A stretch of DNA of 64,000 nt from Nitrosopumilus sp. (GTDB taxonomy: Archaea; Thermoproteota; Nitrososphaeria; Nitrososphaerales; Nitrosopumilaceae), in NCBI GenBank assembly GCA_965249555.1, contig OZ252243.1, positions 2,080,001-2,144,000 on the forward strand. The letters are read 5' to 3'. The translations under genes and the position numbers were made by a program. Positions 19,119 to 64,000 of the stretch are shown here, in pieces. The notes under the pieces are model-generated. The model was not told the DNA's origin, did not search any database, and saw nothing but the letters and a program-made list of their open reading frames with translations. Every line of letters starts with the position of its first letter. Within the stretch, counting starts at the first letter, position 1.

Positions 19119-20516
19119 TTATTGCATTCTCTTTAGAATATCTATTGCTTTTTGCACATCATTATCAGCATCAATTAAAGCCTGTGTTGCATCGTGACGT
19201 GACACTATAGCTTCATTTGCCACATACCTAATATCATCAGCATCGATATGATAATCAACTGTTTCTCGTAGAGGTATGAATTCTTCAAATTCCCCTGTTT
19301 CATCATTAACTCTAGACCCGCCTGCACTTCCAGTTCTTTCTACATATAATAGATTTCCAGTTACTGCATCAAAAAATCCAAAATAGGTCAAAGATACACC
19401 ATCTGAGGATCTTGTAGGTGAAGGTATGCTACAATATACAAGTTGGAGTTTGTAAATAGGTCTCTCATCATATAGTTGCAATGAGGGTTTGGTCCATTGT
19501 TCGAAATATATACCATCTTCAACATGATTATCTTTACAACCAACGTTAAGAAATTTATCATGTTCTAAGACAAATCTTGTAGATGCTTCTTTAAGGTTTG
19601 TTGGGTCTGCAAGTTTCATCTCATTTAGATTGTCATTCCAATAACCAAAGAAGATCATAGTATAACCACCATGTAGATTTACATGAAGTGTATTAGTAGA
19701 TAAATGATAACCATGTGCATTCTGAAAATAACGCTTTTTATCAACGCTAGTAGGTCTAATAGCACTTTCATATGTTGCAAGTTTCAAATCAATTCCCATA
19801 TATTCAAAAAAATCTCTTGCTTGTTCGTGACCAGTTGATATTTCAAAACTATGTGGATGTACAAGTTGAATAGTTACTTTAAGATACCTCTGTGTGTATT
19901 TTTCAAGTTCTATATAACCCTCATTTTCTAAAAAATATCTGTATTTGTCATACATCTCTCTTTTGTCTATTATTCTAATACCAAAATAATCGGCAATCTT
20001 TTGTGCAAAAGCATCTGGATCATCAGGGGGTAATTTTATTACACTAGGGTAAAGAATATCTTGTGGAATTAATTCCGAGATATTTTTAGGGTTTAGAATA
20101 TACACTGGTTCCTCATGTGTGGTTTGAACCGTTGAATTTGTACTGGTTGATTTATCAACACTGGCATCCAATTCTTCAATAGGTGAAGCAATTACAGGAT
20201 TTACATTATCAACTGTTGATTTTACATTTGTAGAATCTTGTTTTTCTACATCCGTATTTGTAGAATCGACAGTAATTGCTATAACATTAAATCCAATTTG
20301 CAACAATCTATCTACCGAGTTTTCAGTTACACAAGCTGGAGTGTTTCGTGGCGATTCCATCAAAATTTTAGAATCACTGCATTGGATTTCATTAATGGGT
20401 ATTCCCGAACTGTATTGTTTGAATGGTGATAAGATTTCTGTCTCTGCAAGTGCAGGTATTGCACTTAATCCGATAGCAAAGACTGCAAGCAGTATTGATG
20501 TTGTTGTATTATTCAA
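19119..20516 (-). CDS. secreted SPxKQ-module protein with C-terminal UBA-like domain
   Basis: N-terminal about 100 aa nearly identical to 10770-11822; ends DDIRYVANEAIVSRHDATQALIDADNDVQKAIDIL. Confidence 0.7.
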   Translation of the reverse strand: MNNTTTSILLAVFAIGLSAIPALAETEILSPFKQYSSGIPINEIQCSDSKILMESPRNTPACVTENSVDRLLQIGFNVIAITVDSTNTDVEKQDSTNVKSTVDNVNPVIASPIEELDASVDKSTSTNSTVQTTHEEPVYILNPKNISELIPQDILYPSVIKLPPDDPDAFAQKIADYFGIRIIDKREMYDKYRYFLENEGYIELEKYTQRYLKVTIQLVHPHSFEISTGHEQARDFFEYMGIDLKLATYESAIRPTSVDKKRYFQNAHGYHLSTNTLHVNLHGGYTMIFFGYWNDNLNEMKLADPTNLKEASTRFVLEHDKFLNVGCKDNHVEDGIYFEQWTKPSLQLYDERPIYKLQLVYCSIPSPTRSSDGVSLTYFGFFDAVTGNLLYVERTGSAGGSRVNDETGEFEEFIPLRETVDYHIDADDIRYVANEAIVSRHDATQALIDADNDVQKAIDILKRMQ

Positions 20517-21299: not shown

Positions 21300-24074
21300 T
21301 TACGGGGTTGAATCAGTGGCAACTCTTACAAAGTTAGAATGCTCAGAATGGATAAAATCATTGATGGCTATGACACGAAAGACATAGGCAGTGTCAGGTG
21401 ACAGATGCTCAACAACATGTGTAGTATCAGAGCTTCCAGTATCAAAAATACAAATGTACAGATCATCTCTGCACAAAATAGTGTATCCAGTTGCTCTATC
21501 ATCATTAGTATCATCCCAGCTTAGTGTGACAGAGTTATGGGTTGTACCAGTAACTAGAAGATTGGTAGGTGCAAGTAGAGTGGTACTAATCTGTACATAG
21601 TTAGACTGCGGGGACTCCTCAATGCCATTGATAGATATTACACGAAAGACATAGACAGCTCCTGATAGCAGGTTCTCAACAACATGTGTGGTATCAGTGC
21701 TTGCAGTATCCTCAATACATGGCTGCAATGCATCTCCAGTAGATATGTCTCTGCACAGAATCTTGTATCCCGTTATGGAGTCATCATCAGCATCATCCCA
21801 GCTTAGCGTGACAGAGTTGGTATTTGCACCAGTAACTAAAAGACGAGTGGGGGTAGAAGGAAGAACAGGAGGGGATGAAACACTAACAGATACAGTAAAA
21901 CTTGTACTAGCTGAATTTCCAGAATCATCAGTTGCAGTACAGGTTACGATGGTAGTGCCAATGAAAAATGAATGGTCAGATGTATAGTCACAAGTGATAG
22001 TTACTGGGAAGATATCAGTAGCAACTGGTTCATTAAAATTTACAATAGCTGATGTGCTGGCAGTTGAGATGGCAATGTCTGCTGATGTACTGTCAGTTGA
22101 GATGGCAATGTCTGCAGGTATGGCAAATACGGGCTTTGTCGTATCATGAATTGTTACCATTTGGGTTGCACTTGATCTATTATTACTAGAGTCTGTCGCA
22201 TACCATATCACTATGGTATCACCTAATGGGAAGGAATTTGGCGCATCATGTGTGATTATTGGATTTCTATCCACAGAATCAATAGATGTTGCCTGGCCAA
22301 GTTGAGACGAAGATACCTTGGTAAATACATCAGTGGATTCCAATGTAACATCAGATGGCGCAGTGATGGTTGGCGCAGTCGTATCCTGGATTGTGATTGT
22401 ATTTGCAGTTGTTGCAGCATTTCCATTAGAGTCAACTAGCGTCCAGTTAATTACAGTATCACCTAGTGGGAAGGAATTTGGCGCATCATGTGTGATTGTG
22501 ACAGTAAAGTGATCAGTTGCAGAAGGGGTGCCATAGTCACTTTGAGATAGTAGTGTTGATAGTCCTGTTGCTTCAAATGTCATATCCTGTAGTATTATGA
22601 ACTGTGGCGGGATTGTATCTGCAATTATTATATCTTGAGATGTACTAGCTGGATTTCCCGAGGTGTCAACTGCGGTCCACGTTACTGTAGTGGTACCTAG
22701 TGGGAACTGCATTGGAGCATCATGTGTGATAGTTGTTGGAAAGATGTCAGTTACTGTAGGGTTTGATAAAGTCAGAACGGTAAAGTCAGACATTGCCTCT
22801 ATTGTAATATTGCTTAAACTGCTAATTATTGGTGCAGTGGTATCCCGGATTGTAATTCTTTGTACAGCACTAGATTGATTCCCAGAATCATCAGTTGCAG
22901 TCCACGTAACTAGAGTAGTGCCAAGTGGGAATGTACTTGGTGCATTATTTGTTATGTCTGGTTCTGCATCTCTGTTATCAGTAGCTGTTGCCTGACCTAT
23001 TTGAGATGCACTAATTGGTGTGAGTTGTGATGTTGCTTCAAATGTTTTATCACCAGGTAGAGTAATTACAGGATTTACATCATCAGCAAATAAAGTGACA
23101 GTAACATCAAATGATATGGTTGCAGGATTTCCTGCACTATCAGTTGCAGTACAGGTTACGATGGTAGTGCCAATGAAAAATATACTACCAGATGATGGGT
23201 CACAAGTTACAGTACCACTCTCATTTATGAGAGGTGTTGGAAATGATACAACAATACCAGTACCATCTGTTTGAGCAAGTACATCAACAACAGTGGAAGT
23301 AAAAGTAGGTGGTGTAGTATCTGTAGGTCGTGGAGGAGATCCTCCGCCGCCACTACTTACACGAGATATTAAGAGATTATCAACTTCTATTTTTTCACTA
23401 CCATTACTAGATTTTGCAACAAAACGGAAATTAGCTGTATCTTCTCTAATGTTGAGAATAAGACGAGTACTCATCCATTGATCTGTGTGTTGATTGTTAT
23501 TTTCAGTGTAAGATACAAGTGTAATCCAAGTATTTCCATCAACAGAATATTGGACGTATAGTCCTTCGTCCCGATCTACATTATCAGCAACATATCTATC
23601 AAAAGAAACATTTAGTCGCCTCGATGTATCTAAAGGTTGATTTAATGTAACTATACATTCTCTATCACAATTCTCAGAGTGTATGACCATATTAGTACGA
23701 CTATTTTCATTTGGTACATTTTCTTGAGGTCTATCTACTATCCAATTTCTATCACCTGACAAAGTCCAATTATTCAAATCATCAAAGTCATCAGCATATG
23801 AATTAGTTGGTGGAAGAATAGGATTAATTGGTTGTGGAGGAGTTGTAGTAACAGCAAATGGGAATTTGTCAATTCCATGTGTGCTAGAAAGTACAAAGGG
23901 CTCACCAGATAAAGTTATCAAAGTTCCATCAGAGCTTACAGTGATAACATAGTTTCCTGTCTGTGATGCATCAAACACAATAAACTCGTTATTTTGAATA
24001 TCAGATGTACTGCGTTTTATTGTACCGTCAGGATAAACTATCTTTAGATCATAATTATGAAATTGGCTAGGCAA
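21300..24074 (-). pseudogene. C-terminal part of an exoprotein (PPC-like, HYR repeats, FN3)
   Basis: NYDLKIVYPDG...NNEFIVF...TGNYVITV PPC-like start, no signal peptide; last about 1.9 kb nearly identical to the C-terminal part of 5059-10773. Confidence 0.7.
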
Positions 24075-30109: not shown

Positions 30110-31251
30110 GAGACATGAGCATAATCCATTCTAATTTTTAACCGATTTCTCAAATTATTCAAATAGAAAAAGCCAAGGATCTCATTATGTTTTGTTCATT
30201 GGAATGATTACAAAACAAATAAAAATCCCTGACAAGATTCTATGTGAGTCATTTCTTATTAGTATTTTGTATCTGGTTGGAACACTATATCTGTATGAGA
30301 ATGCAGTGAGACGAGGACGGCCATATGTCTATTCAACTGTTCTGATGGTTCAGTTATTCATCGTAAAGTCATGGATGAGAATTCCAAGTAACAACACACT
30401 GCATTATTTTCTCTCAATCAAATGTACCAATGACAAATTACTCAAGGTTTGCAGACTAAACCAAATCCCTGACAGAAGGACAATTGACAGAAGATTTCAA
30501 TGCTTGCCAATCAATGAAATTATTAGCACTGTAGGAAATTTGTTTGTCTCAGAAGGATTGGTGAATAGTGAATCAGCATCAGTTGATAGTTCAATGCTAA
30601 AAGCTTCAGGTCCAGTATGGCACAAATCAGACATCAAAAAGAATCACCTACCAATTGCAGGAATTGACACAAATGCCAGGTGGGGATTCTCCAAATCAAA
30701 GGGTTGGGTGTATGGATACAAACTACACATGAGGTATAGTACGGGAAGACTAGTTGTTCCATTATCTGCATGTGTAACTGCTGCAAATGTCCATGATAGT
30801 AAGCCATATGAGAAATTGATTGGGTCACTTTCTGGATTGATGAATAACATACTGTGTGATCCGGCATATGATGATTCCAAACTATACGAGTCAACTAAGA
30901 ATAATGCCATGAGATTAATCTGTCCGGTCAAAAAATACCCGTCTACGCCGCCAGCCAGAATAAAGTTGATAGGGTTTTACAATTCAGCAGTTGGTCGGAA
31001 ATTATATTCTCAGAGAAAAATATCAATTGAACCACTCTTTGAAATAATCAAGGATACGTTTAACATTAGAACAGTTCCGGTGAAAGGATTTGAGAACGTA
31101 CAATCATTCGTGCTGATTTGTGTGCTGGTGTATCAGTTGGCAGTGTATTATAATTGTGTAATTGGAAGTGGGAATCCAAGGATTGTGAAAAGAATGCTTT
31201 GTTGTTAGAGAAAAGTCTTGGTTTTTTTGTAAATCATTATGCCCAAGTCTC
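30110..31251 (+). mobile_element. apparently intact IS982/IS5-like element (transposase about 30204-31208)
   Basis: TIRs GAGACATGAGCATAAT / ATTATGCCCAAGTCTC; VDSS, GWVYGYKLH, ANVHDS, DPAYD, R..IEPLF..IK DDE motifs. Confidence 0.88.
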
Positions 31252-31372: not shown

Positions 31373-33790
31373 ATGAATAAAGAATTTTCAAGTATTATTA
31401 TGTTATTATTAGTGGTATTAATTCCTCTTCAAGGTGTAGCAATTGCACAGACTGATAATTTCAATTCAGTTGATGATGACTCTGACTTTGATAATAATTC
31501 TAACAATTTTGATGGTTTAACTTCTGTTGATCCAATTCAGAATATTGGTGTAATTGAAAAAGGACATTCTGATATTACAAGTTTAATGATTGATGATTCA
31601 AATAATATCTTAGTAGATGAAAATTTACATGGAATTTTTTCAATGGTTTATGTTGATGAAGAAACTATGGAGTTAGTTGTTGTGTTGAATCAACTTCTGT
31701 TATTTAGTTCTGGAATTGATGCAGGAGACATTGAAGATATTTTAGGTGAAGACTTTCCATTTACTGTAAAATATGGTTATGTTGAATCTTATTCACATAC
31801 AACCCCTTATCCACAAAGTTATATCGATAGATGGTTAGTATGGTGGACTCTATACGATTGTGTTGCTGGTTCTAGTGGAATTTGTCATGCAGTTTATTAT
31901 AATTTACATAATGTTAATCATTATACTTTAGATTCAAATAACAATTGGCATTCACAATCTGATTCTTCAAGTGATGAAGACGAAGCAACTTCTTCATCAA
32001 TGAGTGTGATTTTTCAAGATGATTTTGATAATGGTCTAAGTCAATGGTTACAAAATTCTCATTGGCGTTCTCATTATCCAGATGAAAGAAGACAACCGTC
32101 AGGCAGTCCAAGTACAAATCATGTTTTAGAAGTTGATGGTTGTCCTAGTGACTGTGAGATTAGACTTCAAAATTCTATTGATTTCTCAGATGTTCAAAAT
32201 CCTAGAATAGAATTTGATAGATATATTGACAGGTCTTTGGATAGAGGTGAATATCTAAAATTATTTGCTTATGATGGTTCTAGTTGGAATCAACTAGCAA
32301 TATGGAATGATGAGAATGATGATGATGATGATATGTGGCATGAAGAGATAATTAGTTTGTCTGGTTATACCAACGATGATTTTAACATAAAGTTTGTAGC
32401 AAAGATGTCAAGGTCTAATGAAGATGTTGCAGTTGATAATGTTGTAATTACTGGAGGAGTTGAAGGTGATAGTCCATCAAGTATTGATTCAGATAATGAT
32501 GGTGTGAATGATTCAGATGATGATTGCCCTGAAGTATTAGGGTTAGTATCATTGAATGGGTGTCCAGATATGGAATCCCCAGTTTTTGATAACTTACCTT
32601 CTGATATGACTTTTGAGAGAAGGAGTGCTACTTTGGGAAAATATGTAACCATTCCTGTAGTTACTGCAACTGATAATATTGATGGTTTGTTGAATGTTTC
32701 TTGTGATGAATCTTCTGGATGGTTTGCAGTTGGAACGCATACTGTAACTTGTACTGTTTCAGATAATGCTGGAAATAGTATGATAGGTTCATTTAATATT
32801 GTAATTACTGAACCGATTCCTACTGATAGAGATCATGATGGCGTTCCAGATTATTCTGATAATTGTCCTGATGAAGTAGGTGTTCCTTATAATGATGGTT
32901 GTCCTCTTCCTTCTGATTCTGATATGGATGGTTTAGATGATTCAGGTAATAATTGCCCAGACTTGGTTGGGGCTGTTGAGAATTTAGATTGTCCTTTAGT
33001 TCTAGGTGGCCAAGCGATGGATAGTCATTTGGATGCTAGAATATCTGTTGGTGGTCTTATCGGTGATTTTGAGTCTACAGTTACACTTCCAGTTAGGTTG
33101 ATGGATGGTAGATATGGCATAGTTGTATCTGGTCATTCAGTTAATATTGTTGATACAAGTGTATCACCACACAATGTAATTTCTAATAATGATGCTGATT
33201 GGGATCATAGTGTTAGAAATTCAGCAGGTGATTTTGTTTCAATTAGCAGAAATGATCCATCTTTTAGTGTTTATCAAGTGGGAAATACTATGATTGCAGA
33301 TTTTGATTTTATTGAAGTTGATTCAAATTATTTGAGATTGAATACCATACTTAATTCTAATGATCATTATGTTGAAGTTTCATTTGGAGATATTGATGAT
33401 GTTTCAAATAATGGACATGTTACGATGAATGGTAGATACAGTGATTCTGTTGGCCAATTGTTGTATAGAAATGCTACAGTTTTTTCAGATAATGGAATAA
33501 CACTTGTTGATCAAGGAATTACAAATAATCAGGCCATAAGAGGGGATAGTGGAGCTCCATTAATTTATGATGATTCGATAGTTGGTTTACTTCATGGTGT
33601 TGCATGTGTTTTTGAATCACCTGATGAAAATAGGTCTAGATTAGACCTAAATCTCAGAGTTGATTTCCCTTGTGGAGGAAATGATGCTGAAAGTCTTGAT
33701 ATTTATCATTCAGATCATAACTATGATTATTATAAAGTATTTTCAGATTGGGATGAAGTTGTAAGAATGCTTGATATAACTCCTCCTTAA
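31373..33790 (+). CDS. secreted trypsin-like serine protease with HYR and thrombospondin type 3-like repeats
   Basis: signal peptide; DxDxDGVxDxxDxCP repeats; one HYR unit; VVSGH, ADFDFI and RGDSGAPL triad motifs. Confidence 0.7.
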   Translation: MNKEFSSIIMLLLVVLIPLQGVAIAQTDNFNSVDDDSDFDNNSNNFDGLTSVDPIQNIGVIEKGHSDITSLMIDDSNNILVDENLHGIFSMVYVDEETMELVVVLNQLLLFSSGIDAGDIEDILGEDFPFTVKYGYVESYSHTTPYPQSYIDRWLVWWTLYDCVAGSSGICHAVYYNLHNVNHYTLDSNNNWHSQSDSSSDEDEATSSSMSVIFQDDFDNGLSQWLQNSHWRSHYPDERRQPSGSPSTNHVLEVDGCPSDCEIRLQNSIDFSDVQNPRIEFDRYIDRSLDRGEYLKLFAYDGSSWNQLAIWNDENDDDDDMWHEEIISLSGYTNDDFNIKFVAKMSRSNEDVAVDNVVITGGVEGDSPSSIDSDNDGVNDSDDDCPEVLGLVSLNGCPDMESPVFDNLPSDMTFERRSATLGKYVTIPVVTATDNIDGLLNVSCDESSGWFAVGTHTVTCTVSDNAGNSMIGSFNIVITEPIPTDRDHDGVPDYSDNCPDEVGVPYNDGCPLPSDSDMDGLDDSGNNCPDLVGAVENLDCPLVLGGQAMDSHLDARISVGGLIGDFESTVTLPVRLMDGRYGIVVSGHSVNIVDTSVSPHNVISNNDADWDHSVRNSAGDFVSISRNDPSFSVYQVGNTMIADFDFIEVDSNYLRLNTILNSNDHYVEVSFGDIDDVSNNGHVTMNGRYSDSVGQLLYRNATVFSDNGITLVDQGITNNQAIRGDSGAPLIYDDSIVGLLHGVACVFESPDENRSRLDLNLRVDFPCGGNDAESLDIYHSDHNYDYYKVFSDWDEVVRMLDITPP

Positions 33791-40602: not shown

Positions 40603-41952
40603 TTAGATGTATTTTGCCATCTCAGAAAACATGTTCAATTCCCTTATTCTCCATGTCTCAAAGCATGTGAGAAAGACTGAGATCATCCTCATGCCCTGAT
40701 CACTCTTCATCTGCCCGCGAACATTCCTCTGCATCACGCACTTTCGAATGGAATTCTCTGCATCATTGTTAGTTGACGGGACATCACCATCCATGACAAA
40801 CGTAAACATGCTGTTCCTTGCAGTCTTTAGCTTCTTGCCAAACTGAACCATCTCCATATCACCTTTCAAATATCGTGCAATGATACGGTCTAGCTGTTTT
40901 AGTAAATCATCCCTGTACGTTTCCCGCCGTTTTGTATGACGATTACCTACACTCCAAACCCTGGCATGACCTAGCATATCTGAGAGTTTCTCGTATAGAA
41001 TCCTTGCCTTTTTGTCCTGTGATTTTATTGCCAGATATTTGGCATCGCGCTGCAGGTGTGCAGTGCATCTCTGCTTTGTGTTATCACAAAATACTGTCCT
41101 GTACGGAGCATATCCGTCAGACACTAGGGTTCCTTTGAATTTCTTCCAGTACTTTTTTAGAACATTGGCACCTCTGCTGTACTCCAAGGCATACTGTGCA
41201 CTAGTCTTGCTTCTTGCAACCCACATCCATCCAGTATTTCCATCAATTGAAAATCCTGTCTCATCGATTCCGAGAATCTTTTCAGTCACGATTTCGCTGT
41301 GGATTGTATTGTAAAATGACTCTAACATCACACTACCGTTGCGAAGAATGGATTGTACGGTTGTATTGCTGATTTCTAATCCATATCTTTCATAGAGTGT
41401 GGTTCTGATAGCATCGTATGTCAATCTCTTTGAGAACAGTGAGACGACCTCACGTATCACTGAACCATCAAAACATCCATGTGATGGAAGGTTTCCCGTG
41501 GTTTGAAAATTATCAGAACAGTCCATGCAGATGTATTGATTCAAAACATGCTCAGTTATACCGTAGGGTGTTGGTGGAGGAATCTCAACCATTATCCTTT
41601 TGCAGGTTTTGGTTTGATGAATATTTTCACTACCGCATTTGGGACATGCATCTGATCTGTGGTGTTTGGTGCTAGTTGGTCTGAATTTCTGTGTCTTGCC
41701 AACGTGTCCTGCTATTCCACCACGTCTTGATTTGTCTGGCTGTCTGTGTTGTCTTTTTTGCTTTCTCCATTCAAGGGAATTCTTTGATGGCGGAGAGTGA
41801 GCATTCTCATAATATGACAGCTTTTTTTGCAGTTCCTTGTTTGATTCTATGAGATTCTCTATGACTAGTTTTAGTTGTTTTATCACTTCGTCTTGTTGTT
41901 TTGTCTTTTTTTGTAGCTGTATGATGATTTTCTCATGACCACAACCTGACAT
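40603..41952 (-). mobile_element. IS66-family transposase, intact ORF
   Basis: leucine zipper, HSPPS, zinc finger, IDETG, LVSDGY..Y, QRCTAHL.R, TNNDAENSIR. Confidence 0.9.
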
Positions 41953-47256: not shown

Positions 47257-50200
47257 CTAGTCATTCCAGCTAAGATCAGAGTCATCATATATCATACAGT
47301 CACACAGCATCTCCTGGGCCAGCATCTCCTGTATGGATAGTGATTCCAGCAATGCGGGATCTGATACTCTGTCCAGCCTTAATGGCATGTCATATGAGAA
47401 TGATTCATCCAGAGTTCCCTGAATTGCCTTACTATCAAAGATTAGGGTTGCCCTGTCCTGCTCATCAATTACCAGATTTGCAAAGTTTGAATGAATTCTA
47501 GTCATTACGCTTGTTGGCAGATCATCTCTTTGTTGTATATCTGGTCTTGTAATCTGCAACCAGGTGCCATAGTCATTTTGTGACCATATGTATCCATATT
47601 GGTCCTCCCAGACCTGGTAACGTCTGTCCTGCTGGGTTAGTGATATGGTCTCAAACGGATTCTGGTTGCCATGCTTTTGTTTTAGTTCATGAGTTGCTGC
47701 TGCAAGTAATGCTTCTCCTGTAAACTCTACACCTTCGTTGATATATGTGGTAGTAGAATAACGTTGTTTGTCAACTGCATTAATTGCCAATACTTCATGG
47801 GATAATGGTGCCATTATTACAAATGATATGGTAACATCAAAGCACCTCTCTGCAGTATCTGATGATATGCATTTGACTTTGTCAATGGATGCACCAGTCA
47901 TCTTCTCATTTACTAGTTCCTCTTTTTGCTCATGGACTATATCTGCAATGTCATAGCCTGCAGGACTGGTATAGTTGCTATTTACATTTACTATAATGTG
48001 GGACTCTGCATTAGTTTTCAGGCCAATTTCTGGAACTCCAAGGGATAGAGATACCGACTTTAGACCATTTGTTGCATAGCCTTTGATGTGGACTGTATTG
48101 TTATCACCAATAATGCTGCTAGTCAGATTAAAGTCAGTGTGCCAGTTGTTTGTAATGGTTAATGGCATGCCATTAAAGACAAAGCCGTCATCAACTAGCT
48201 GTACTGCTTGATTATTCCAATGTTTGCCAAAGGTTGGCTTTGTTTTCCATTCATTAGAATCTCCACCTTTTTTCTTTGGTGTGTCAGTTCCAGTAATTAC
48301 ACCATCTCCACTATCGGAGTCATCAGGATTTTGAGCAGGTACTGTGTATGTTCTAGTTACAGATTCAGCTGCATTGTCTGATGCATCTACAGAATCATAA
48401 GTGATATCGTAATCGCCTTGTGTGTTAACATCAACATTTCCAGTTGTAGTAACTGTAGAGCCATCATCAGCTGAGACTCCTTTAAGCAAGTCAGGTTGTA
48501 ATGAGTCAGCTTGTAGTGTAACGGTAAGAGGATCAACTGTGATTACTGGTGGTGTTGTATCAGGTGGAGTTGGTGCTGCGGTAGCTGTAACTGTGACTGT
48601 TCTAGTTACTGTAACTGCATGGTTTCCGGCCGCATCAACTACATCAAAGGTAACATCATAGGTTCCAATCGTACTGGTATCAACTGTATCTCCAACAACT
48701 ACATCATCTGTGATAACTCCATCAGTGTTATCAGTTGCAGTAAAGGTGAATGGTGTGTATTCTTCTCCAAGTTCAACGGAGAATGATTCCTCATTGACTG
48801 TGATAGATGGTGCTGTTATATCAAATGCTTCAGGTACAGGTTCACATATTTCATTATCTACAGCAACACCCTTTATACAAACTCGATTAGCATCGTTTAG
48901 ATCGATGATATGAGTAATACGGATAGTATGTTGATTTGATCCGTCAGATGGAGTGAAAGTATCAAAATCACTACTACCGTCACTAATAATAAGAACATAG
49001 TTATTGGTGATACTAGTTTCTATATTACTCCAGGATACTGTAACGGAATTATCAGCATTTCTTACAGCATCTATTGTTGGTGGTGCTGCAACATCAGATG
49101 CTACTGTTACGGTTTCAGTGATGATAGCAAATAACCCATTGTTGTCAGTTACGGTATAAGTTACAGTATATTCTCCAGAAGTGTTGACATTTACCAAGTC
49201 ATCACCAACTACAATACTAGATGCAATTCCTGAGATATCAGATTCATTGGCAATTACACCTGGGGCGTATGTTCCGCCAAATGGTACTGTAGTTGTATAG
49301 TCAACTGTGTTACCATCAACATCAAAGGTTGGCGGTGTGGTATCAGATACGGTAATTGTAATTGATTGTTGGTCTGGCGTGTTACCTGCTGTATCAGCTG
49401 GCGCATCATACAATACGGTGTATACTCCTATAACACTGGAGTTAGGCGCATCATCTGTAATTGTTACTGTTCCAGAGTAGGCTGGGTCATTATCTTCTAC
49501 AGTAGCGTCAGGTATAGTGTAGGTGTCAGTTGTAGTTAACTCTATTGTTTCACTGGATCCTAATACCGTGATTACCGGTTTTTCGGTATCAAGTGTAATG
49601 ACTATAGCTGGTGATGCAGCAGATGTGTTGACTCCATCAGATGCTCTTGCAGTGAATGAGTTGGCACCCTCATCTAGTTCAACTCCTGCAAATGAGAAAT
49701 CACCTGATCCATCGGCAGTTACTGTACCAGCTGATGTCATTCCATTGAATAGTGTTATAGTTGCTCCGGCCTCAGTTGAACCGCCATCAATTGTGATTGG
49801 TGATGCGCCAACAGTTGCAGATGGTGTGGTAATTGCAGGAACTGGTGGTGGTGTGGTATCAACAGGTGGTACTTCTTCAGACGTTATATTATTATTATCT
49901 ACAGCACCACCAACGGGATTACCCTCAGAAAAACCAAATACACCAATTTCCTCAGCACTATTTGCTTTGTTAAAAGATGGATCATCTTTGGTAATAGTAT
50001 GTGGACTAGTGACAAGTTCAGCAATTGAATCAGGATCCTCACCTTCGTTAATTGCATAAATATTATAATCGGTACCAGGTATATTGCCCCAAGTTACTGT
50101 GATGGAGTCAGTAGTAGGTCTTGTAACTGTTACAAATGGTTCAGTTGGTGTAGTTGCTGCAAGTGTAGTTACAGACACGACACTAGAATCGGCACTGTCT

Positions 50201-56354: not shown

Positions 56355-56819
56355 CTACAGCTTGTCTTCGATTTTCTTTAAGATACCTGTCATATCTTTG
56401 AGAGAATTTGATGTCTCTTTCTGAGATGATGCTATCTCTTTGAGAGAATTTGATGTCTCTTTCTGAGATGATGCTGTCTCTTTCTGAGATGATGCTATCT
56501 CTTTGAGAATTCCAGATATCTCTATATGGTTTTCTTTGAGAATTTTTGTATGGCTCTCAAGGATTTCATTTTGCTCGTTGAATCGCCTGTACAGCTTGTG
56601 TGCCACATCTCTTGTTGCAAGCATCATATAGACACCTACGACGCCGGCAATAATAAAGGCAGCTCCCAAGGCAATCAGCATTTCATTATATGGGGGCGTG
56701 ATTCCAAGTGCCAGAATACCTGCTCCCAGACACATTATAACAAACAACCAGTGGTTGCCTTTTGTGGTATCTTGTATTTGGGATGAAATCCTTCTTATCT
56801 GGTTTTTGGTATCTACCAC
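56355..56819 (-). CDS. two-TM protein with heptad-repeat coiled-coil tail
   Basis: two TM helices; 21-bp SQKETAS/LKEIASS repeats. Confidence 0.65.
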   Translation of the reverse strand: MVDTKNQIRRISSQIQDTTKGNHWLFVIMCLGAGILALGITPPYNEMLIALGAAFIIAGVVGVYMMLATRDVAHKLYRRFNEQNEILESHTKILKENHIEISGILKEIASSQKETASSQKETSNSLKEIASSQKETSNSLKDMTGILKKIEDKL

Positions 56820-56893
56820 TTGTAATTTTTATCTCCGTTGTTATCCCACATTATCCCAGTCATGTGTCTCATCTGTATGCTCCTCTTAAAAAA

Positions 56894-57181
56894 CTAAGAG
56901 GCATGTACAAGCTCTGATTCTGCAGATAGTTTCTGCAACATTTTTACTGCAATGACATGCGAGCATTCACCTCGAAACTTGAATCCCATACATTCGCATA
57001 TCTCATCATTTATGATGTATGATCTTCCAGGAGTGGATGCGTTTACCTGGTAGGTATCATCATCAATCTGAATGATGCATTTTGTGTCTATGAGATTCTG
57101 TGCCTTTTTCTCCGTGAATTCAGACATTACCCACATTGGATGAAGACGTATCAAGGTGGATTTCTGTCGTATCACTCTCAT
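56894..57181 (-). CDS. SWIM zinc-finger protein
   Basis: CECMGFKFRGECSHVIAV. Confidence 0.72.
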   Translation of the reverse strand: MRVIRQKSTLIRLHPMWVMSEFTEKKAQNLIDTKCIIQIDDDTYQVNASTPGRSYIINDEICECMGFKFRGECSHVIAVKMLQKLSAESELVHAS

Positions 57182-57531
57182 AGAGTTGTATAATCTCCAT
57201 CACACACTCGGGTTTCTAATGTTGCTCCTGCAAACCAATTACTTTTAGTTAGTTCTTGCAGCTGCTGTCCTACCTTGTTTTCAGATACTCCAGATGCTGA
57301 TTTGGCAGACCATGTGATTCCAAGTTCTCTTTGTGTGTGTCCGCATTTCTCCGGTCCGTTGAATCTGATTTCAGTTGGAGCAATTGTCGGATAGTTCGTA
57401 CCCATTCCGTCTGCAAGAACTACTCCAAGATGTCTTAGTGGTGTTACCATCTTTTTGAAATCCGTTGCAACTTTTGAGAATTTTCCCGCATCAAACTCTG
57501 GTGATACGTAATAGTAGTGAGTGTAACCCAT
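57178..57531 (-). CDS. hypothetical MGE protein (MGYTHY start), possibly truncated
   Basis: MGYTHYY...EIRFNG pattern seen in phage/plasmid hypotheticals. Confidence 0.5.
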   Translation of the reverse strand: MGYTHYYYVSPEFDAGKFSKVATDFKKMVTPLRHLGVVLADGMGTNYPTIAPTEIRFNGPEKCGHTQRELGITWSAKSASGVSENKVGQQLQELTKSNWFAGATLETRVCDGDYTTL

Positions 57532-57740
57532 TAGTTGCACTCTACACAGTTACATGACACTGCATGCTGTTCTGGTAATGAGGAATAGTATGCTTCATTT
57601 ACAATCTTTTCCTCATGACACTGTTGCAGGATTTCAAGTTGTTCTGAACTCCACCCCATGCTAACTATACACTTTGTATGAGAGAGGGGATTTTGTGAAT
57701 TGATTTCTGTGCTCTCACTTGCACTGTTTTGTTGGACCAT
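57531..57740 (-). CDS. small hypothetical protein
   Basis: same RBS and MVQQ start as 55672-56112; ends HAVSCNCVEC. Confidence 0.5.
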   Translation of the reverse strand: MVQQNSASESTEINSQNPLSHTKCIVSMGWSSEQLEILQQCHEEKIVNEAYYSSLPEQHAVSCNCVECN

Positions 57741-59345: not shown

Positions 59346-60152
59346 TTAGTTCTCTATCTCTATTGGCGGGTTTTCTTTAGTGATATTTTCAGCATCACTT
59401 AACATTGCAGTTATTGCCTTTTGTACTCTGCTGAGAACCTTAAAGCATGCCCGTCCAACTTCTTCTGGAGAGTCAGTTTTTGCATATGTTGCGATATAAT
59501 TCCAGGTGTAGTTTTCTGAATCATATCCGTACATCTTTGCAAGTACACAAGCTCCCAACTGTGCGACTGTTTCTTGTTCTGGGTCTTGTTTTAGCTTTAG
59601 TTTGATATTTTTGTTATCATACCAGTGAACTAATTCGTGTAGAAATGTATCAGGAGCTTCGGTACTCAGTACAATCTCTTTTCTTTTTGGATCAATTGAA
59701 CCGTATTCTCCATGACGTGTGTTTTCCCATTTCACATCAATTCCATTTTTTGCTGCCAAGTCAAACAACGGAGGCAGAACTTTTGGGGCATATTCTTGCA
59801 GAGGTTCACCTTCTGTATCCTCATATCGAAATACAGGCATTCCCCTGAATCCAATCACTATTGTTTTGTCCTCTTCATTTTTGTCTTTGATTCTTTTTTG
59901 CATTGGAATCAATATGTATATTGCCTTGGAACCTTTTTTGACATGTCTTCTTACCTGCTCCCACTGCCTGTATCCTCTTGCATCAGTTGTTCCAGAGAAG
60001 AGCATTAGTACTTGGTTTCCCAAAGACCATGAGGATGATGGAATTTCTTCTGCACTGATGAATGCCTTTGCACATGTTTCTGCAAACTCTTTGTTGGAAA
60101 AGTGTTCTACAATGTCATTTAGAATAGCTGTTGCCTTTTCAGAATTCTTCAT
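59346..60152 (-). CDS. ardC: ArdC-family ssDNA-binding/antirestriction protein with metallopeptidase domain
   Basis: WSLGNQVL...ARGYRQW....RHVKKGSKAI.I..P, VF..EDTEG, LHELVH, EQETVAQL. Confidence 0.78.
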   Translation of the reverse strand: MKNSEKATAILNDIVEHFSNKEFAETCAKAFISAEEIPSSSWSLGNQVLMLFSGTTDARGYRQWEQVRRHVKKGSKAIYILIPMQKRIKDKNEEDKTIVIGFRGMPVFRYEDTEGEPLQEYAPKVLPPLFDLAAKNGIDVKWENTRHGEYGSIDPKRKEIVLSTEAPDTFLHELVHWYDNKNIKLKLKQDPEQETVAQLGACVLAKMYGYDSENYTWNYIATYAKTDSPEEVGRACFKVLSRVQKAITAMLSDAENITKENPPIEIEN

Positions 60153-60613: not shown

Positions 60614-61651
60614 TTATATTTTCTGACTCGCTGTTGGGACAGGAAGCGAGCTTGCAAAGGATTGTACTATATGCTGGTTCTTTTCTTTGTGGTCTTTTTT
60701 GGTTGGTAGATTACCATATTTGTAGTCCAGTCTCCTCAGTTCTGTACCGTCCCATTTCTTCTCAAGAGAGTCTGCCTTTCTTTTGTACACCTTGGACTGT
60801 CTTTTGGATGTATGATTCCATGAATCAATCATCTCTGCAGATAGGACTGGTGTTGTGTGGATGATGAATGCTTTTGTCTCTGCGTTGAACTGTCTGTCTT
60901 TGGCATCATCTGTTGGCTCTCGATTGTATTTTTTGAGAATCTCTAGTTTGTCAGAGTCTGTCAATGGTCTGTCTCCTTCACTGATTGCAGCAACAAAAAT
61001 CAGACTGCATGATAGTATGGGTCTGACCTGAACAGTCTTTACCTCATCACCGCTTGGAATTAATAGTAATTCCTCACTGTGTGTTTTTCCTGTTGTCTGT
61101 ATGGATGATATTCCAGATAACTTTGGAGTGATTCCGGTACTCTGGTATCTCCTTGGTCGGTGTGATAGAATTCTGTCAGTCCTTTCAGCTGCTCTGATGT
61201 CTTTTTTTGCAAATTCTATCTCCAGGAATTGCTCATCCCATGATGGTACGATACCAGTAGAGAATCTCTTTCTTTGTACAAGGTATCCTCCACAGACACA
61301 ACGAGTTATGTCTGCTGGTTGTTTCCAGGAATGGCATCTCTTGCAACAAGTTGCCTTTTCAGTTTTTATGGAATCCATGTCAACTGGCTGTACTTCCAAT
61401 GGATATGCTCCCTTGAATTTCTTCATTGGAATCTCAAATAAACAGAGTTTGCCGTCTTGAAGAACTGCTACTACACCCTCTTTGGCTCTGAATTGAATCA
61501 AAGCCTTGTTGGTACGGTCATATTTGACATGACCTCTGTACCCTTGGGATTCTAGTTTCTGCTCAAGGTAGTTCTTTACCAAAAGCAATTTTTGACTACT
61601 TGGTACATTTTTGATACTTGTACTGGTATTGTTTGAATTTTTGAAAACCAT
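60614..61651 (-). CDS. basic hypothetical protein with zinc ribbon
   Basis: 345-aa ORF; CKRC...C.CGG; GGAGA upstream. Confidence 0.6.
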   Translation of the reverse strand: MVFKNSNNTSTSIKNVPSSQKLLLVKNYLEQKLESQGYRGHVKYDRTNKALIQFRAKEGVVAVLQDGKLCLFEIPMKKFKGAYPLEVQPVDMDSIKTEKATCCKRCHSWKQPADITRCVCGGYLVQRKRFSTGIVPSWDEQFLEIEFAKKDIRAAERTDRILSHRPRRYQSTGITPKLSGISSIQTTGKTHSEELLLIPSGDEVKTVQVRPILSCSLIFVAAISEGDRPLTDSDKLEILKKYNREPTDDAKDRQFNAETKAFIIHTTPVLSAEMIDSWNHTSKRQSKVYKRKADSLEKKWDGTELRRLDYKYGNLPTKKDHKEKNQHIVQSFASSLPVPTASQKI

Positions 61652-62041: not shown

Positions 62042-62082
62042 AGAAAAAAATTGGATTTCTGTAAATTTCTTTACAGTTGGTT

Positions 62083-62796
62083 TTAGCACCCAGATTGTTT
62101 TGCCCATGGTTCATCACCGAATTCACTGATATTACAGAATCGATGAATGATCTCCGCATGGCTGTTTGATACGAGTAATGAGTTGATAGATGCAGTTGGA
62201 GTGTGTGCTGGATATCCCATACACCACACCTTGGCAATCATCCTACCATGTGAGCCGCCTTTCTGCCCGTCGTCTGCATCATAGAGTACCGCGGTTCCAA
62301 CAGGGCATTGCTTTATTGTAAATGCAGTCGCATTAGAATAGCCTTGCTCGTTACGCTCTGGAGTGTTCACCAGGGATAGTCGTATTCGAATACCATCAAT
62401 GTCTATGGTATCACCGTCGACAATCTTTGTGACTTTTCCACTCTTAACCGTTCCATATGGTATGACATCAGGGATTTGCTGTTTTGCAATATTTGTTGAT
62501 GCAATATCATTTGGCGTATCTGCCGGTTCTGATATCTGGGTGTCATTGTGAACTTTTTCAAGTTCGTTTGTGGTGTTTGCAAAGACTGCACTTATGCCCT
62601 CTGTTTTTTCCTCAACTGATGATATCATTCCGGGAATGTCTGCTGCAAGCAGTGCTGGAACAACATAGGCGTATGTGAGGGATGCAATGCTGACAATAAA
62701 TACAGTCATGCAAACAGCCACTGTTATTTTTTTGATAAATTGTTTTTTTGACATGGACTCGTATGTGAGTTTCGGAAACTTATTCCTCATCAGCAT
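62083..62796 (-). CDS. membrane-anchored thermonuclease (SNase family)
   Basis: TM helix; VTKIVDGDTI...IRLSLVNTPE...HGRMIAKV...IN..LV. Confidence 0.85.
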   Translation of the reverse strand: MLMRNKFPKLTYESMSKKQFIKKITVAVCMTVFIVSIASLTYAYVVPALLAADIPGMISSVEEKTEGISAVFANTTNELEKVHNDTQISEPADTPNDIASTNIAKQQIPDVIPYGTVKSGKVTKIVDGDTIDIDGIRIRLSLVNTPERNEQGYSNATAFTIKQCPVGTAVLYDADDGQKGGSHGRMIAKVWCMGYPAHTPTASINSLLVSNSHAEIIHRFCNISEFGDEPWAKQSGC

Positions 62797-62838
62797 GTCT
62801 TCTAGTTGAGTTATATTGATGAAATGATATGAGAATAG

Positions 62839-62906
62839 TGAGGGTCAGAACTTTTGCTGTCATCATTACTGATGTTCAGATCAACGCCGCTCTCATCATC
62901 CCCTCA
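62839..62906 (-). ncRNA. box C/D-like sRNA 1
   Basis: TGAGGGG-ATGATGA-GAGCGGCGTTGAT-CTGA-ACATCAGTA-ATGATGA-CAGCAAAAGTT-CTGA-CCCTCA. Confidence 0.75.
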
Positions 62907-63072
62907 TTATCAATCTAGAATGTTTTGAAATGTGTAAATTGGAGTTTTGTAGACTGCACTTGTACCCTCTGTCTGCTCCTCAACTGATGATATCATTCCG
63001 GGAATGTCTGCTGCAAGCAGTGCCGTAACACTTCTGGTTATGAGTTATATTGATGAAATGATATGAGAATAG

Positions 63073-63140
63073 TGAGGGTCAGAATATGGGGCTGTCATCA
63101 TTACTGATGTTCAGATCAACGCCGTTCTCATATCCCCTCA
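63073..63140 (-). ncRNA. box C/D-like sRNA 2 (box C has a 1-nt deletion)
   Basis: TGAGGGG-ATATGA-GAACGGCGTTGAT-CTGA-ACATCAGTA-ATGATGA-CAGCCCCATATT-CTGA-CCCTCA. Confidence 0.65.
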
Positions 63141-63306
63141 TTATCAATCTAGAATGTTTTGAAATGTGTAAATTGGAGTTTTGTAGACTGCACTTGTACC
63201 CTCTGTCTGCTCCTCAACTGATGATATCATTCCGGGAATGTCTGCTGCAAGCAGTGCCGTAACACTTCTGGTTATGAGTTATATTGATGGAATGATATGA
63301 GAATAG

Positions 63307-63374
63307 TGAGGGTCAGAATATTGGCTGTCATCATTACTGATGTTCAGATCAACGCCGTTCTCATCATCCCCTCA
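63307..63374 (-). ncRNA. box C/D-like sRNA 3
   Basis: TGAGGGG-ATGATGA-GAACGGCGTTGAT-CTGA-ACATCAGTA-ATGATGA-CAGCCAATATT-CTGA-CCCTCA. Confidence 0.75.
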
Positions 63375-63540
63375 TTATCAATCTAGAATGTTTTGAAATG
63401 TGTAAATTGGAGTTTTGTAGACTGCACTTGTACCCTCTGTCTGCTCCTCAACTGATGATATCATTCCGGGAATGTCTGCTGCAAGCAGTGCCGTAACACT
63501 TCTGGTTATGAGTTATATTGATGGAATGATATGAGAATAG

Positions 63541-63608
63541 TGAGGGTCAGAACGGTTTTCTGTCATCATATTGATGTTCAGCTCAACGCCGCTCTCATCA
63601 TCCCCTCA
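63541..63608 (-). ncRNA. box C/D-like sRNA 4
   Basis: TGAGGGG-ATGATGA-GAGCGGCGTTGAG-CTGA-ACATCAAT-ATGATGA-CAGAAAACCGTT-CTGA-CCCTCA. Confidence 0.75.
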
Positions 63609-64000
63609 TTATCAATCTAGAATGTTTTGAAATGTGTAAATTGGAGTTTTGTAAAATTTTAGGATATTTGGAAAATTGTATTGGGTTTTGTAAAGTTTTA
63701 GGATTTTGGAAAATTGTAAAGTTTGGAGTTTTGCAGAGTTGTAAATGGTTTTGGAAAAAAGTCAGTTTCTTGTAATGATTTTGTGGTTTTTGATTTTGTT
63801 GTCTGTTTTTTTGGTTTTAGTTTTGGGTTGTAAAGCGTTGCAATATTCTGCAACGCCAAAACATCCTGAAAATTCAATCAAAATATTTTCTTGTACCGTT
63901 TTTCTGCAGATACTAGAATTCAGGCTCTCCGTCATCTGCAATTCCCGGTTTTGTATCAGAGATGGTATCTTTTTTTGGATCTGGATTGATTGTTCCCATA

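Follow-up and report, generated by a model that had tools for sequence, protein, structure and literature searches.

Four tandem elements lie upstream of a nuclease gene

The DNA analysed here is a 64-kb window of a Nitrosopumilus genome (G000:C1:2080001-2144000, where G000 is the genome under study and G and L numbers are analysis labels). Positions 62807-63653 of the window form a tandem repeat with a period of 234 bp (3.6 copies, 96% matches, 0% indels; Tandem Repeats Finder), and every 234-bp unit holds one 68-nt element on the minus strand. The four elements, c1-c4, resemble archaeal box C/D guide RNAs (small RNAs, hereafter sRNAs). They are followed by a gene for an SNase-type nuclease and, further on, by a gene for a weak ArdC-N-like protein, a type that marks conjugative elements (Table 1). 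The sections below describe the array, its guides, its surroundings and its relatives, and build up to the reading that we consider probable: four guide RNA genes carried as cargo by a conjugation-gene island.

Read on the minus strand, each element begins with a stem sequence (TGAGGG), a G, box C (ATGATGA), a 13-nt D' guide, box D' (CTGA) and a loop of 8-9 nt. From the loop on come box C' (ATGATGA), an 11-12-nt D guide, box D (CTGA) and the second half of the stem (CCCTCA). The 6-bp stem that closes the C/D kink-turn (K-turn) is present in all four copies, as are box D and the internal CTGA and ATGATGA boxes. Box C is intact in three of the four; in c2 it reads ATATGA (63128-63133), one G short. 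The D' guides of the array are GAGCGGCGTTGAT, GAACGGCGTTGAT (twice) and GAGCGGCGTTGAG, that of c4—the first copy of the array—ending in G instead of T; c4 also has the 8-nt version of the loop. This is the arrangement described in the initial annotation of the window, which had reported 234-bp units with 68-nt minus-strand elements and had flagged the box C of the second copy as damaged.

The 234-bp unit does not occur a second time anywhere in the genome. In addition, a covariance model (R1), built from 11 related elements of G000 and two other genomes, finds no further copies in the window when run with its filters off. The variation among the four copies is not an assembly error, because contigs from another study carry all four variants unchanged: contigs of four DNA runs were compared (short-read contigs break inside the repeat), and those of one run, X6, from the other study, span all four copies with 0 differences (Logan); run X1 also has a few variant contigs at low depth.

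Table 1. Coordinates of the array, its parts and neighbouring features, in window positions; R1 and RF00095 denote covariance model scores
Feature	Position	Strand	Details
C/D sRNA c1	62839-62906	-	Copy closest to the nuclease gene; box C 62893-62899, D' guide 62880-62892, box D' 62876-62879, box C' 62860-62866, D guide 62849-62859 (CAGCAAAAGTT), box D 62845-62848, 6-bp terminal stem; R1 48.8 bits, RF00095 26.9 bits (gathering score 45)
C/D sRNA c2	63073-63140	-	D' guide 63115-63127, D guide 63083-63094 (CAGCCCCATATT); R1 39.4 bits
C/D sRNA c3	63307-63374	-	Box C 63361-63367, D' guide 63348-63360, D guide 63317-63327 (CAGCCAATATT); R1 52.4 bits, RF00095 29 bits
C/D sRNA c4	63541-63608	-	Box C 63595-63601, D' guide 63582-63594, D guide 63551-63562 (CAGAAAACCGTT); R1 42.1 bits
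166-nt spacer	62907-63072, 63141-63306, 63375-63540	-	Three copies, almost identical
AT-rich degenerate direct repeats	63640-63745	-	Periods 18, 25 and 39; motif TTTACAA; upstream of the array
SNase-type nuclease gene	62083-62796	-	237 aa; start 42 nt after c1
345-aa protein gene	60614-61651	-	Accompanies sRNAs; paralogue at genome positions 2156246-2157289
ArdC-N-like protein gene	59346-60152	-	HExxH motif; PF08401 E 5.2e-4, 20.7 bits (cut-off 22.6)

The elements have the anatomy of archaeal box C/D sRNAs

A strict pattern for box C/D sRNAs (RTGATGA, 10-14 nt, CTGA, 2-14 nt, NTGATGA, 10-14 nt, CTGA) was run over the whole genome, a single contig of 2,230,439 bp with 34.4% G+C and one rRNA operon. 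It matches four times: at c1, c3 and c4, and at a fifth element located at 2157679-2157731, beyond the window. The pattern misses c2, and it finds 0 matches in each of 10 first-order Markov genomes. When Rfam is searched at permissive thresholds, 40 of the 44 matches in the stretch belong to C/D-box families; the top-scoring families are all of this kind, with RF00095 the best (29 bits, E 0.0017).

Two further points concern the terminal stem and the host. Firstly, in an alignment of the wider family (fitted to model R1 and including a few reverse-strand hits), the terminal helix is 95.4% paired, compared with at most 68.5% when it is slid along the sequences; 4 of its 8 pairs change on both sides, and its covariation score is reached by 0 of 500 shuffles. 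Secondly, the host genome encodes all three proteins of the L7Ae-Nop5-fibrillarin particle that the initial annotation had invoked for the canonical archaeal layout: fibrillarin (PF01269, 298 bits) and Nop5 (PF01798, 231.6 bits), whose genes are adjacent at 1.375-1.377 Mb, and L7Ae (PF01248, 90.8 bits), with two L7Ae-family proteins in the genome. The layout itself stands up in the boxes, the spacings and the stem of the copies. On the strength of their sequence, the elements would thus qualify as archaeal C/D sRNAs apart from the box C of c2, in a host that has the proteins to use them.

Few other candidates are found in this genome. A loose scan gives four more C/D-like sequences, three outside the island region and one in the window (19237-19306), and model R1 gives two more in the chromosome; the four-copy array therefore represents a sizeable fraction of all guide RNA candidates in the cell. 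Candidate chromosomal C/D sRNAs are located at 180178-180255 (+), 2013706-2013780 (+), 401496-401545 (-) and 902438-902484 (-). The first of these has a guide core, GCCGTGAC, in common with island-borne sRNAs (type B) of a related genome, G274, and to judge from this shared core the guides of islands and those of the core genome may be related.

One guide is constant and the other variable

An alignment of the units of c4, c3 and c2 contains 13 variable columns. One of these is in the 166-nt spacer; the other twelve are in the 70-nt sRNA part, where the D guide accounts for seven (Fisher p = 2e-6 for sRNA versus spacer; p = 8e-9 for the D-guide core versus the rest). The D guide is the mutational hot spot of the unit.

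The same division of the RNA into a fixed and a changing guide is seen in homologous loci. We compared a set of 10 distinct sequences of one type (type C) from G000, G274, G389, G395 and L042, the last a locus from a named Nitrosopumilus metagenome-assembled genome (MAG) record whose copy equals that of G395 and was counted once. Positions 1-9 of the D' guide (GGCGTTGAT) are kept in nine of the 10 sequences, c4 deviating at position 1. The same set has nine different D guides; the stem, the loop and box C' vary too. The claim of one constant and one variable guide, made at first for the array, hence extends to its relatives, with a skew in G274 that lends it moderate support. In one of the two G274 arrays, the spacers are almost identical and the guide cassettes are of three types; in another genome, G394, the spacers have diverged too.

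Three causes may account for the excess of changes in the D guide: (i) selection for new targets, (ii) homogenisation of the spacers combined with selection that holds the guides apart, and (iii) exchange of guide cassettes between elements. Mutagenesis by a diversity-generating retroelement (DGR) was considered as a source and is excluded, because the genome has no reverse transcriptase gene (no RVT_1 match) and the D guides differ in length, being 11 or 12 nt long.

The distribution of changes also bears on a simpler explanation, namely that the array is a recent tandem duplication of one functional sRNA gene, without a function of its own, whose extra copies are decaying and in which the D guide is the only part of the RNA free to vary. 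Drift should hit the 166-nt spacer at least as often, yet one column varies there as opposed to seven in the D-guide core (p = 8e-9). Moreover, none of the four copies has lost the stem or any of the D', C' and D boxes, and at least three other genomes (G274, G394 and G388) also have arrays. We therefore regard decay as quite unlikely, even though it would account for the base missing from the box C of c2, for a non-coding fragment of the nuclease gene dragged along in each unit (see below), for a D guide without recognisable target and for the copies with degenerate boxes among the relatives.

The constant guide may pair with rRNA at one of two candidate sites

Targets in rRNA and tRNA were sought as duplexes of at least 8 bp around the fifth base upstream of box D or D'. 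The D' guide of the array has two candidate sites. At positions 2002-2011 of the large-subunit (LSU) rRNA, guide positions 1-10 form 8 Watson-Crick (WC) and 2 GU pairs, with predicted methylation of A2006; at positions 904-912 of the small-subunit (SSU) rRNA, guide positions 1-9 form 8 WC and 1 GU pairs, with predicted methylation of A908. Both sites are identical in all five other sRNA-bearing genomes checked. We take the LSU candidate sites to lie around helices 68-71, and the SSU site in the helix-31 loop. LSU helices 68-71 (domain IV) are a hot spot of methylation in archaea, according to excerpts of a published account (PMC7994747).

The versions of the guide in G274 pair better than those of the array: 9 WC and 2 GU pairs at the LSU site and, with a one-base insertion, 10 WC and 1 GU pairs at the SSU site. 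A sister guide, GTTCCATTCATT, makes 11 WC pairs with LSU 2071-2081, 70 nt away, a match equalled by 30 of 2000 shuffles; for copies of type A, LSU A2074 is a further candidate methylation site. Over the 31 distinct D' guides of the family, the mean match to rRNA is 8.50, against 8.04 +/- 0.19 for shuffled guides, and 1 of 200 shuffled sets is as high; guides within the family are related, so that this test overstates their independence and its result counts for less than the figures suggest. Together, the conserved guide core, the identical sites, the pairing in G274, the sister guide and the enrichment among D' guides would favour a real rRNA target.

Two side observations concern the D' guides of relatives. 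In one G274 array (array a; L035 4040-4241), adjacent type-C copies differ by the one-base insertion mentioned above, which moves the best rRNA match from LSU 2002-2012 (9 WC and 2 GU pairs) to SSU 904-914 (10 WC and 1 GU pairs); from the pairing, this looks like migration of the target between two similar sites. In L051 (1501-1570) and L054 (1501-1571), the D' guide GCCGCGTGCAAT makes 10 WC pairs with the anticodon-loop region of the host's tRNA-Ala(UGC).

For the D guide, no target in rRNA or tRNA could be detected. Its best case is that of c1 with LSU 1129-1138 (9 WC and 1 GU pairs), which 70 of 2000 shuffles equal. No convincing D-guide site is found near the D' target, in LSU 1751-2300, and neither guide of the array has a tRNA duplex of at least 8 bp of good quality. 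Perfect D-guide matches of at least 10 nt number 0-15 per guide in the genome besides the guide's own locus; they are scattered rather than concentrated on the island, and were judged, without a shuffle control, to be consistent with chance.

These results permit a different view of the variable guide. The D guides may be a selected, fast-changing repertoire directed at RNAs outside the rRNA and tRNA pool, for example mRNAs of the host or the element, or the RNAs of competing elements or viruses. The host particle would then be a programmable tool, leaving the constant D' guide with no task beyond particle assembly or action on the ribosome. A good deal of what is described above fits this view: the concentration of 7 of 13 variable columns in the 7-9-nt D-guide core compared with one in the 166-nt spacer, the nine D guides among 10 distinct type-C sequences, the D guides that differ between otherwise near-identical units of the two G274 arrays, the lack of any excess of D-guide complementarity to rRNA or tRNA, and the presence of all four variants, unchanged, in contigs of another study. 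However, a variable core of 8-9 nt gives little specificity beyond a small target space, the array has only four copies, and no target is found, the genome-wide matches of at least 10 nt lying scattered, with no concentration on the island. Orphan guides are, besides, common among ordinary archaeal sRNAs, according to parts of an earlier study (PMC6009581). We consider a selected repertoire unlikely.

The array lies on a conjugation-gene island

That the array is directly upstream of, and co-oriented with, a nuclease gene had already been noted; the nuclease proves to be of the SNase type. It matches a thermonuclease of the PDB (E 2.4e-6, residues 122-195) and scores 17.2 bits with Pfam SNase, under the cut-off, and its N-terminus is a hydrophobic stretch (judged by eye from the translation). 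No run of five or more T is present on the minus strand of the 864-nt array, and a run of seven follows the stop codon of the nuclease gene (62044-62050). The absence of T runs would fit transcription of the array and the nuclease gene as one unit. Each repeat unit also contains a TTTACA motif, 31-36 nt upstream of the sRNA, and the AT-rich direct repeats ahead of the array are possibly a promoter or protein-binding region. Finally, the spacer holds a relic of the gene itself: positions 62951-63030 repeat, over 80 nt and at 91% identity, the segment of the nuclease gene for residues about 45-71.

The 345-aa protein encoded downstream has 34 homologues, all of them nameless and without a Pfam domain, some of which adjoin sRNAs in other genomes. 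The protein itself has no Pfam or NCBIfam match. Its AlphaFold2 model (pLDDT 60) has no Foldseek match at E <=0.001, the best VIA-align Z score being 4.8; at this model quality the fold searches are uninformative, and they give no evidence of a new fold. The 345-aa protein and its 347-aa paralogue are 86% identical, have an invariant cysteine cluster (CC..C...C.C) and always occur near sRNAs.

The wider surroundings contain several genes of conjugative elements. The weak ArdC-N match, 2.7 kb from the array, is of a type that marks such elements, and 14-22 kb from the array are two conjugation ATPases—one TraG/VirD4-like (858 aa; TraG-D_C/T4SS-DNA_transf), the other VirB4/TraG-like (617 aa; P-loop_TraG/AAA_10)—together with an actin-like (MreB/ParM-type) partition protein and a TBP paralogue. 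The mobile-element setting proposed in the initial annotation can be specified, by the VirB4/TraG/VirD4-type ATPases and the actin-like gene, as a conjugation-gene island. The TBP paralogue (2160411-2160992; L012 16414-16992; minus strand; PF00352, E 3.2e-8) hints at element-specific transcription.

Past the end of the window, small-gene cassettes stand in tandem over about 10 kb. They are followed by a second module, which consists of the fifth sRNA, the paralogue of the 345-aa protein and a divergent actin-like gene. The fifth sRNA (2157671-2157740; L012 13671-13740; minus strand) lies 13.7 kb past the end of the window. It has an 8-bp stem and the guides GTCTCTGGCAAT and CAGCCATCTAT, for which no convincing target was found, and it is 205 nt away from the divergent actin-like gene. 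At 1134645-1134918 (minus strand), three 137-bp tandem repeats have a conserved core of ~45 nt with the hairpin ATTGCC-AGA-GGCAAT; a 10-nt complement of the D' guide of the fifth sRNA is present in this core, probably by chance. The cassettes between the two sRNA modules are each ~2.5 kb long, on the minus strand, and repeated about 5-6 times in tandem (window 56355-57740 and genome 2144500-2154600, the latter L012 500-10600); their open reading frames (ORFs) encode 66, 117, 95 or 77, and 126, 112 or 147 aa. None of the four in-window cassette ORFs scanned has a Pfam match above the cut-off.

The first 50 kb of the window are of a different kind. They contain a gene for HMG-CoA synthase, genes for giant surface proteins with HYR, fn3 or Ig-like domains (5059-10155, 21300-23690, 31373-33790 and 47257-49740) and, among these, transposase genes of the IS66 and IS4 types (40603-41952 and 30204-31208). 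This stretch is apparently a variable island adjoining the conjugation genes. No tRNA genes are present in the window.

A guide array next to a nuclease gene invites comparison with RNA-guided nucleases, and the initial annotation had drawn a link to TIGR-Tas systems and considered an effector outside the window. A TIGR-Tas-like or other RNA-guided system, with the nuclease or the 345-aa protein as its nearby effector, would make sense of a tandem dual-guide array on a mobile element that adjoins a nuclease gene and a conserved neighbour of unknown fold. We consider it highly improbable. A search of the whole genome for Nop domains gives a single match (1375959-1376615), the host Nop5 at 1.376 Mb beside fibrillarin, and the 20 neighbouring proteins scanned contain none; the nuclease, which has a hydrophobic stretch at its N-terminus, is homologous to SNase; and the array has K-turn boxes, a 68-nt RNA and a 234-bp unit, as opposed to the 36-nt tigRNAs and 8-12-nt repeats of TIGR. 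Membership of TIGR-Tas in particular was rejected for want of a Tas protein and for the different repeat architecture and K-turn boxes; the link drawn earlier falls with it, and an effector of the element's own is likewise not supported.

Relatives occur patchily across the genus

Matches to model R1 are found in 16 of 151 Nitrosopumilus genomes (G000 included), and in 13 of the 98 that are of good quality. Thirteen of the 16 are ~1.9-2.8 Mb in size, at the upper end of the genus sizes listed. Arrays in the family have from two to at least nine units: G274 has two arrays with a 130-bp period, 6-7 units and three sRNA types, G394 has four units of about 234 bp, and G388 has at least nine. Some of the relatives in other genomes have degenerate boxes.

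Searches beyond the model give a similar picture. A DNA search of 301 genomes of the family finds 17 with matches, mostly short AT-rich ones to the spacer, the sRNA part being matched only in G274, G041 and G010; nothing stated here depends on G206, a genome flagged as unpublished. The D' guide plus boxes, used as a pattern, has 0 matches in IMG/VR viral contigs and two in JGI metagenome contigs, both GC-rich chance matches without C'/D boxes. In genome contigs it matches five stretches: three in Nitrosopumilus MAG records and two in bacteria. The two bacterial matches are taken as chance, since the stem-plus-box pattern finds no sRNA-like element there.

The company that the sRNAs keep is also repeated. 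The position immediately upstream of a nuclease homologue recurs in G274, where the sRNA array is divergent from an actin-like gene and is followed by the genes for the nuclease, the 345-aa protein and small proteins, and in L042, where two sRNAs precede a nuclease homologue with the same reading-frame start. Of nine genomes with a close homologue of the actin-like protein (E <=1e-50), seven have an sRNA or array 205-1289 nt away from it, in divergent orientation. The exceptions are G291, in which the two are not adjacent, and G264, which has contig-end fragments only. The family appears to combine a patchy distribution with a conserved place beside the partition-like and nuclease genes of the island.

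The last observation raises the question of whether the main role of the repeats is at the DNA level, with the RNA genes as passengers. They would then be iterons, either centromere-like or regulatory, that serve the actin-like partition system or the TBP encoded on the island. Divergent placement within 1.3 kb upstream of the actin-like gene in seven of nine genomes, almost identical spacers within arrays and short TTTACAA repeats ahead of the array would be expected of such sites. But the array studied here is 14 kb from the actin-like gene, beside the nuclease gene instead, and a role as DNA leaves unexplained the full box layout, the guide spacing of 11-13 nt and the complementarity of the D' guide to rRNA. 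As the main function we consider it improbable. A DNA-level role alongside an RNA role is possible, as the two do not exclude each other.

A cargo of guide RNAs: proposed mechanism and points against it

We propose that the array consists of four tandem archaeal box C/D guide RNA genes, carried as cargo by a Nitrosopumilus conjugation-gene island and working as follows. The sRNAs would be transcribed as one unit with the downstream SNase-type nuclease gene, or else from a weak TTTACA promoter in each unit. The host proteins L7Ae, Nop5 and fibrillarin would bind them, trimming would bring them to a length of about 68 nt, and the conserved D' guide would direct 2'-O-methylation of host rRNA, with LSU A2006 and SSU A908 as the candidate sites. 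The array would have originated by tandem duplication of an sRNA together with a piece of the nuclease gene. Because the spacer copies an internal 5' part of that gene, the unit would have arisen by duplication of the sRNA and the start of the gene, followed by an internal deletion. Thereafter, either selection for different D guides would have kept the copies distinct, or exchange of guide cassettes would have renewed them; the spacers would have stayed homogenised in both cases. We consider this account, taken as a whole, to be probable, with a fair amount of room for doubt.

Several of our results weigh against it. A search of sequencing runs listed no RNA run that contains the stretch. Box C is damaged in c2, and no Rfam model reaches its gathering score in the window (RF00095, the best, has 29 of 45 bits); the latter weighs little, curated archaeal models being genus-specific. 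When the copies are folded for minimum free energy, a CAUCA/UGAUG hairpin, which could compete with the C'/D' K-loop, forms in c1, c2, c4 and the fifth copy but not in c3; the initial annotation had suspected that such a hairpin could sequester box C'. The array's own rRNA target, with two competing candidate sites, is not statistically secure: shuffled guides match the D' duplexes of the array in 536, 396 and 728 of 2000 cases. The 37 distinct D guides of the family have no excess of rRNA matches (7.59, compared with 7.62 for shuffled guides), nor of tRNA matches. As for the D-guide skew, 5 of about 18 differences between the two G274 arrays are in D guides, and three of the five unit pairs have none there. 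Lastly, no PF00589 integrase is encoded in 2.08-2.19 Mb (there are five matches elsewhere; other recombinase families were not searched). It is because of this missing tyrosine integrase that we use the name conjugation-gene island, and claim no mapped ends for it.

A bolder form of the cargo account gives both guides a task. A conjugative element would carry a programmable guide array and borrow the fibrillarin particle of its host. The fixed guide would rewrite the SSU P-site loop or the LSU subunit interface, and the diversifying guide would methylate a changing set of non-ribosomal targets; this could shield RNAs from ribonuclease toxins that depend on the 2'-OH, or could mark or tune transcripts of the host or of rivals. 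Such an array would amount to a CRISPR- or TIGR-like repertoire made of ordinary C/D RNAs and lacking an effector. We offer this extension as a doubtful one.

Box C/D guide RNAs are regarded as housekeeping genes of the core genome, and the array suggests a mobile element that is equipped with RNA-modification guides of its own. Provided that the RNAs are active, a horizontally transferred element can alter the ribose-methylation pattern of the host ribosome in an abundant marine nitrifier. The array is also a natural case of fast guide turnover, and the R1 family (16 of 151 genomes, with arrays of two to at least nine units) is a concrete, testable set in which to study the origin of new guides.

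Comparison with known systems

In the literature covered, we found no report of C/D sRNAs on an archaeal plasmid, virus or conjugative element, nor of C/D sRNAs in Thaumarchaeota; subscription journals and supplements were not covered, and an earlier report of either is possible. A 2019 survey of integrated elements in Thaumarchaeota does not contain the terms sRNA, snoRNA, 'box C', fibrillarin, 'methylation guide' or ParM (PMC6563490).

The closest likeness is to the archaeal box C/D sRNAs themselves (RF00095 snoPyro_CD and the Sulfolobus sR families), which have the same boxes, two guides of ~12 nt, a stem and a length of ~68 nt. The elements described here differ from them in several respects: (i) they are located on a conjugation-gene island and occur in 16 of 151 genomes of the genus, (ii) they are arranged in tandem with near-identical 166-nt spacers, (iii) one of their guides is hypervariable, (iv) their host is a mesophile with few other candidates, and (v) their scores are below all Rfam gathering thresholds.

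Clusters of C/D genes are another point of comparison. Such clusters are known from plants and yeast (snoRNAs) and have reportedly been described in archaea (by Tripp et al. in 2017); their members are distinct RNAs that belong to the core genome. The present array is similar in that it contains several guide RNAs in a row, probably within one precursor with a neighbouring gene; it is distinguished from known clusters by near-identical units that are on a mobile element and differ mainly in one guide. The ParMRC partition loci of plasmids such as R1 have a repeat-built centromere upstream of the actin-like gene. With these loci the family has in common a repeat array just upstream of, and divergent from, the gene for an actin-like ATPase, as well as a small ORF after that gene, here one of 92 aa. 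What sets the family apart is a repeat length of 130-234 bp and the presence of complete RNA genes within the repeats.

TIGR arrays, as portrayed by Faure et al. 2025 (PMC12045711), consist of alternating repeats of 8-12 nt and spacers of ~9 nt, produce 36-nt tigRNAs with UG/CCA motifs, and have been proposed to be linked in evolution to C/D RNAs. There is a likeness in that these systems, too, combine variable guides with a constant scaffold in tandem dual-guide arrays, most of which are located on mobile elements. The array of G000 differs from these in having no Tas protein, K-turn boxes, a 68-nt RNA and a 234-bp unit.

A final parallel is provided by the C/D sRNA elements of Pyrobaculum calidifontis, which resemble miniature inverted-repeat transposable elements (MITEs). 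In the sections of Lui et al. 2018 (PMC6009581) on which we draw, these are multi-copy elements with conserved flanks and poorly conserved guides, the guides being orphans or having non-conserved targets, and the authors propose that they serve to generate and spread sRNAs. The P. calidifontis elements are dispersed over the chromosome of a hyperthermophile, with flanking inverted repeats and degenerate C'/D' boxes (PMC6009581, same sections). Those of Nitrosopumilus, in contrast, stand in tandem on a conjugative island, and have canonical internal boxes and one conserved guide.

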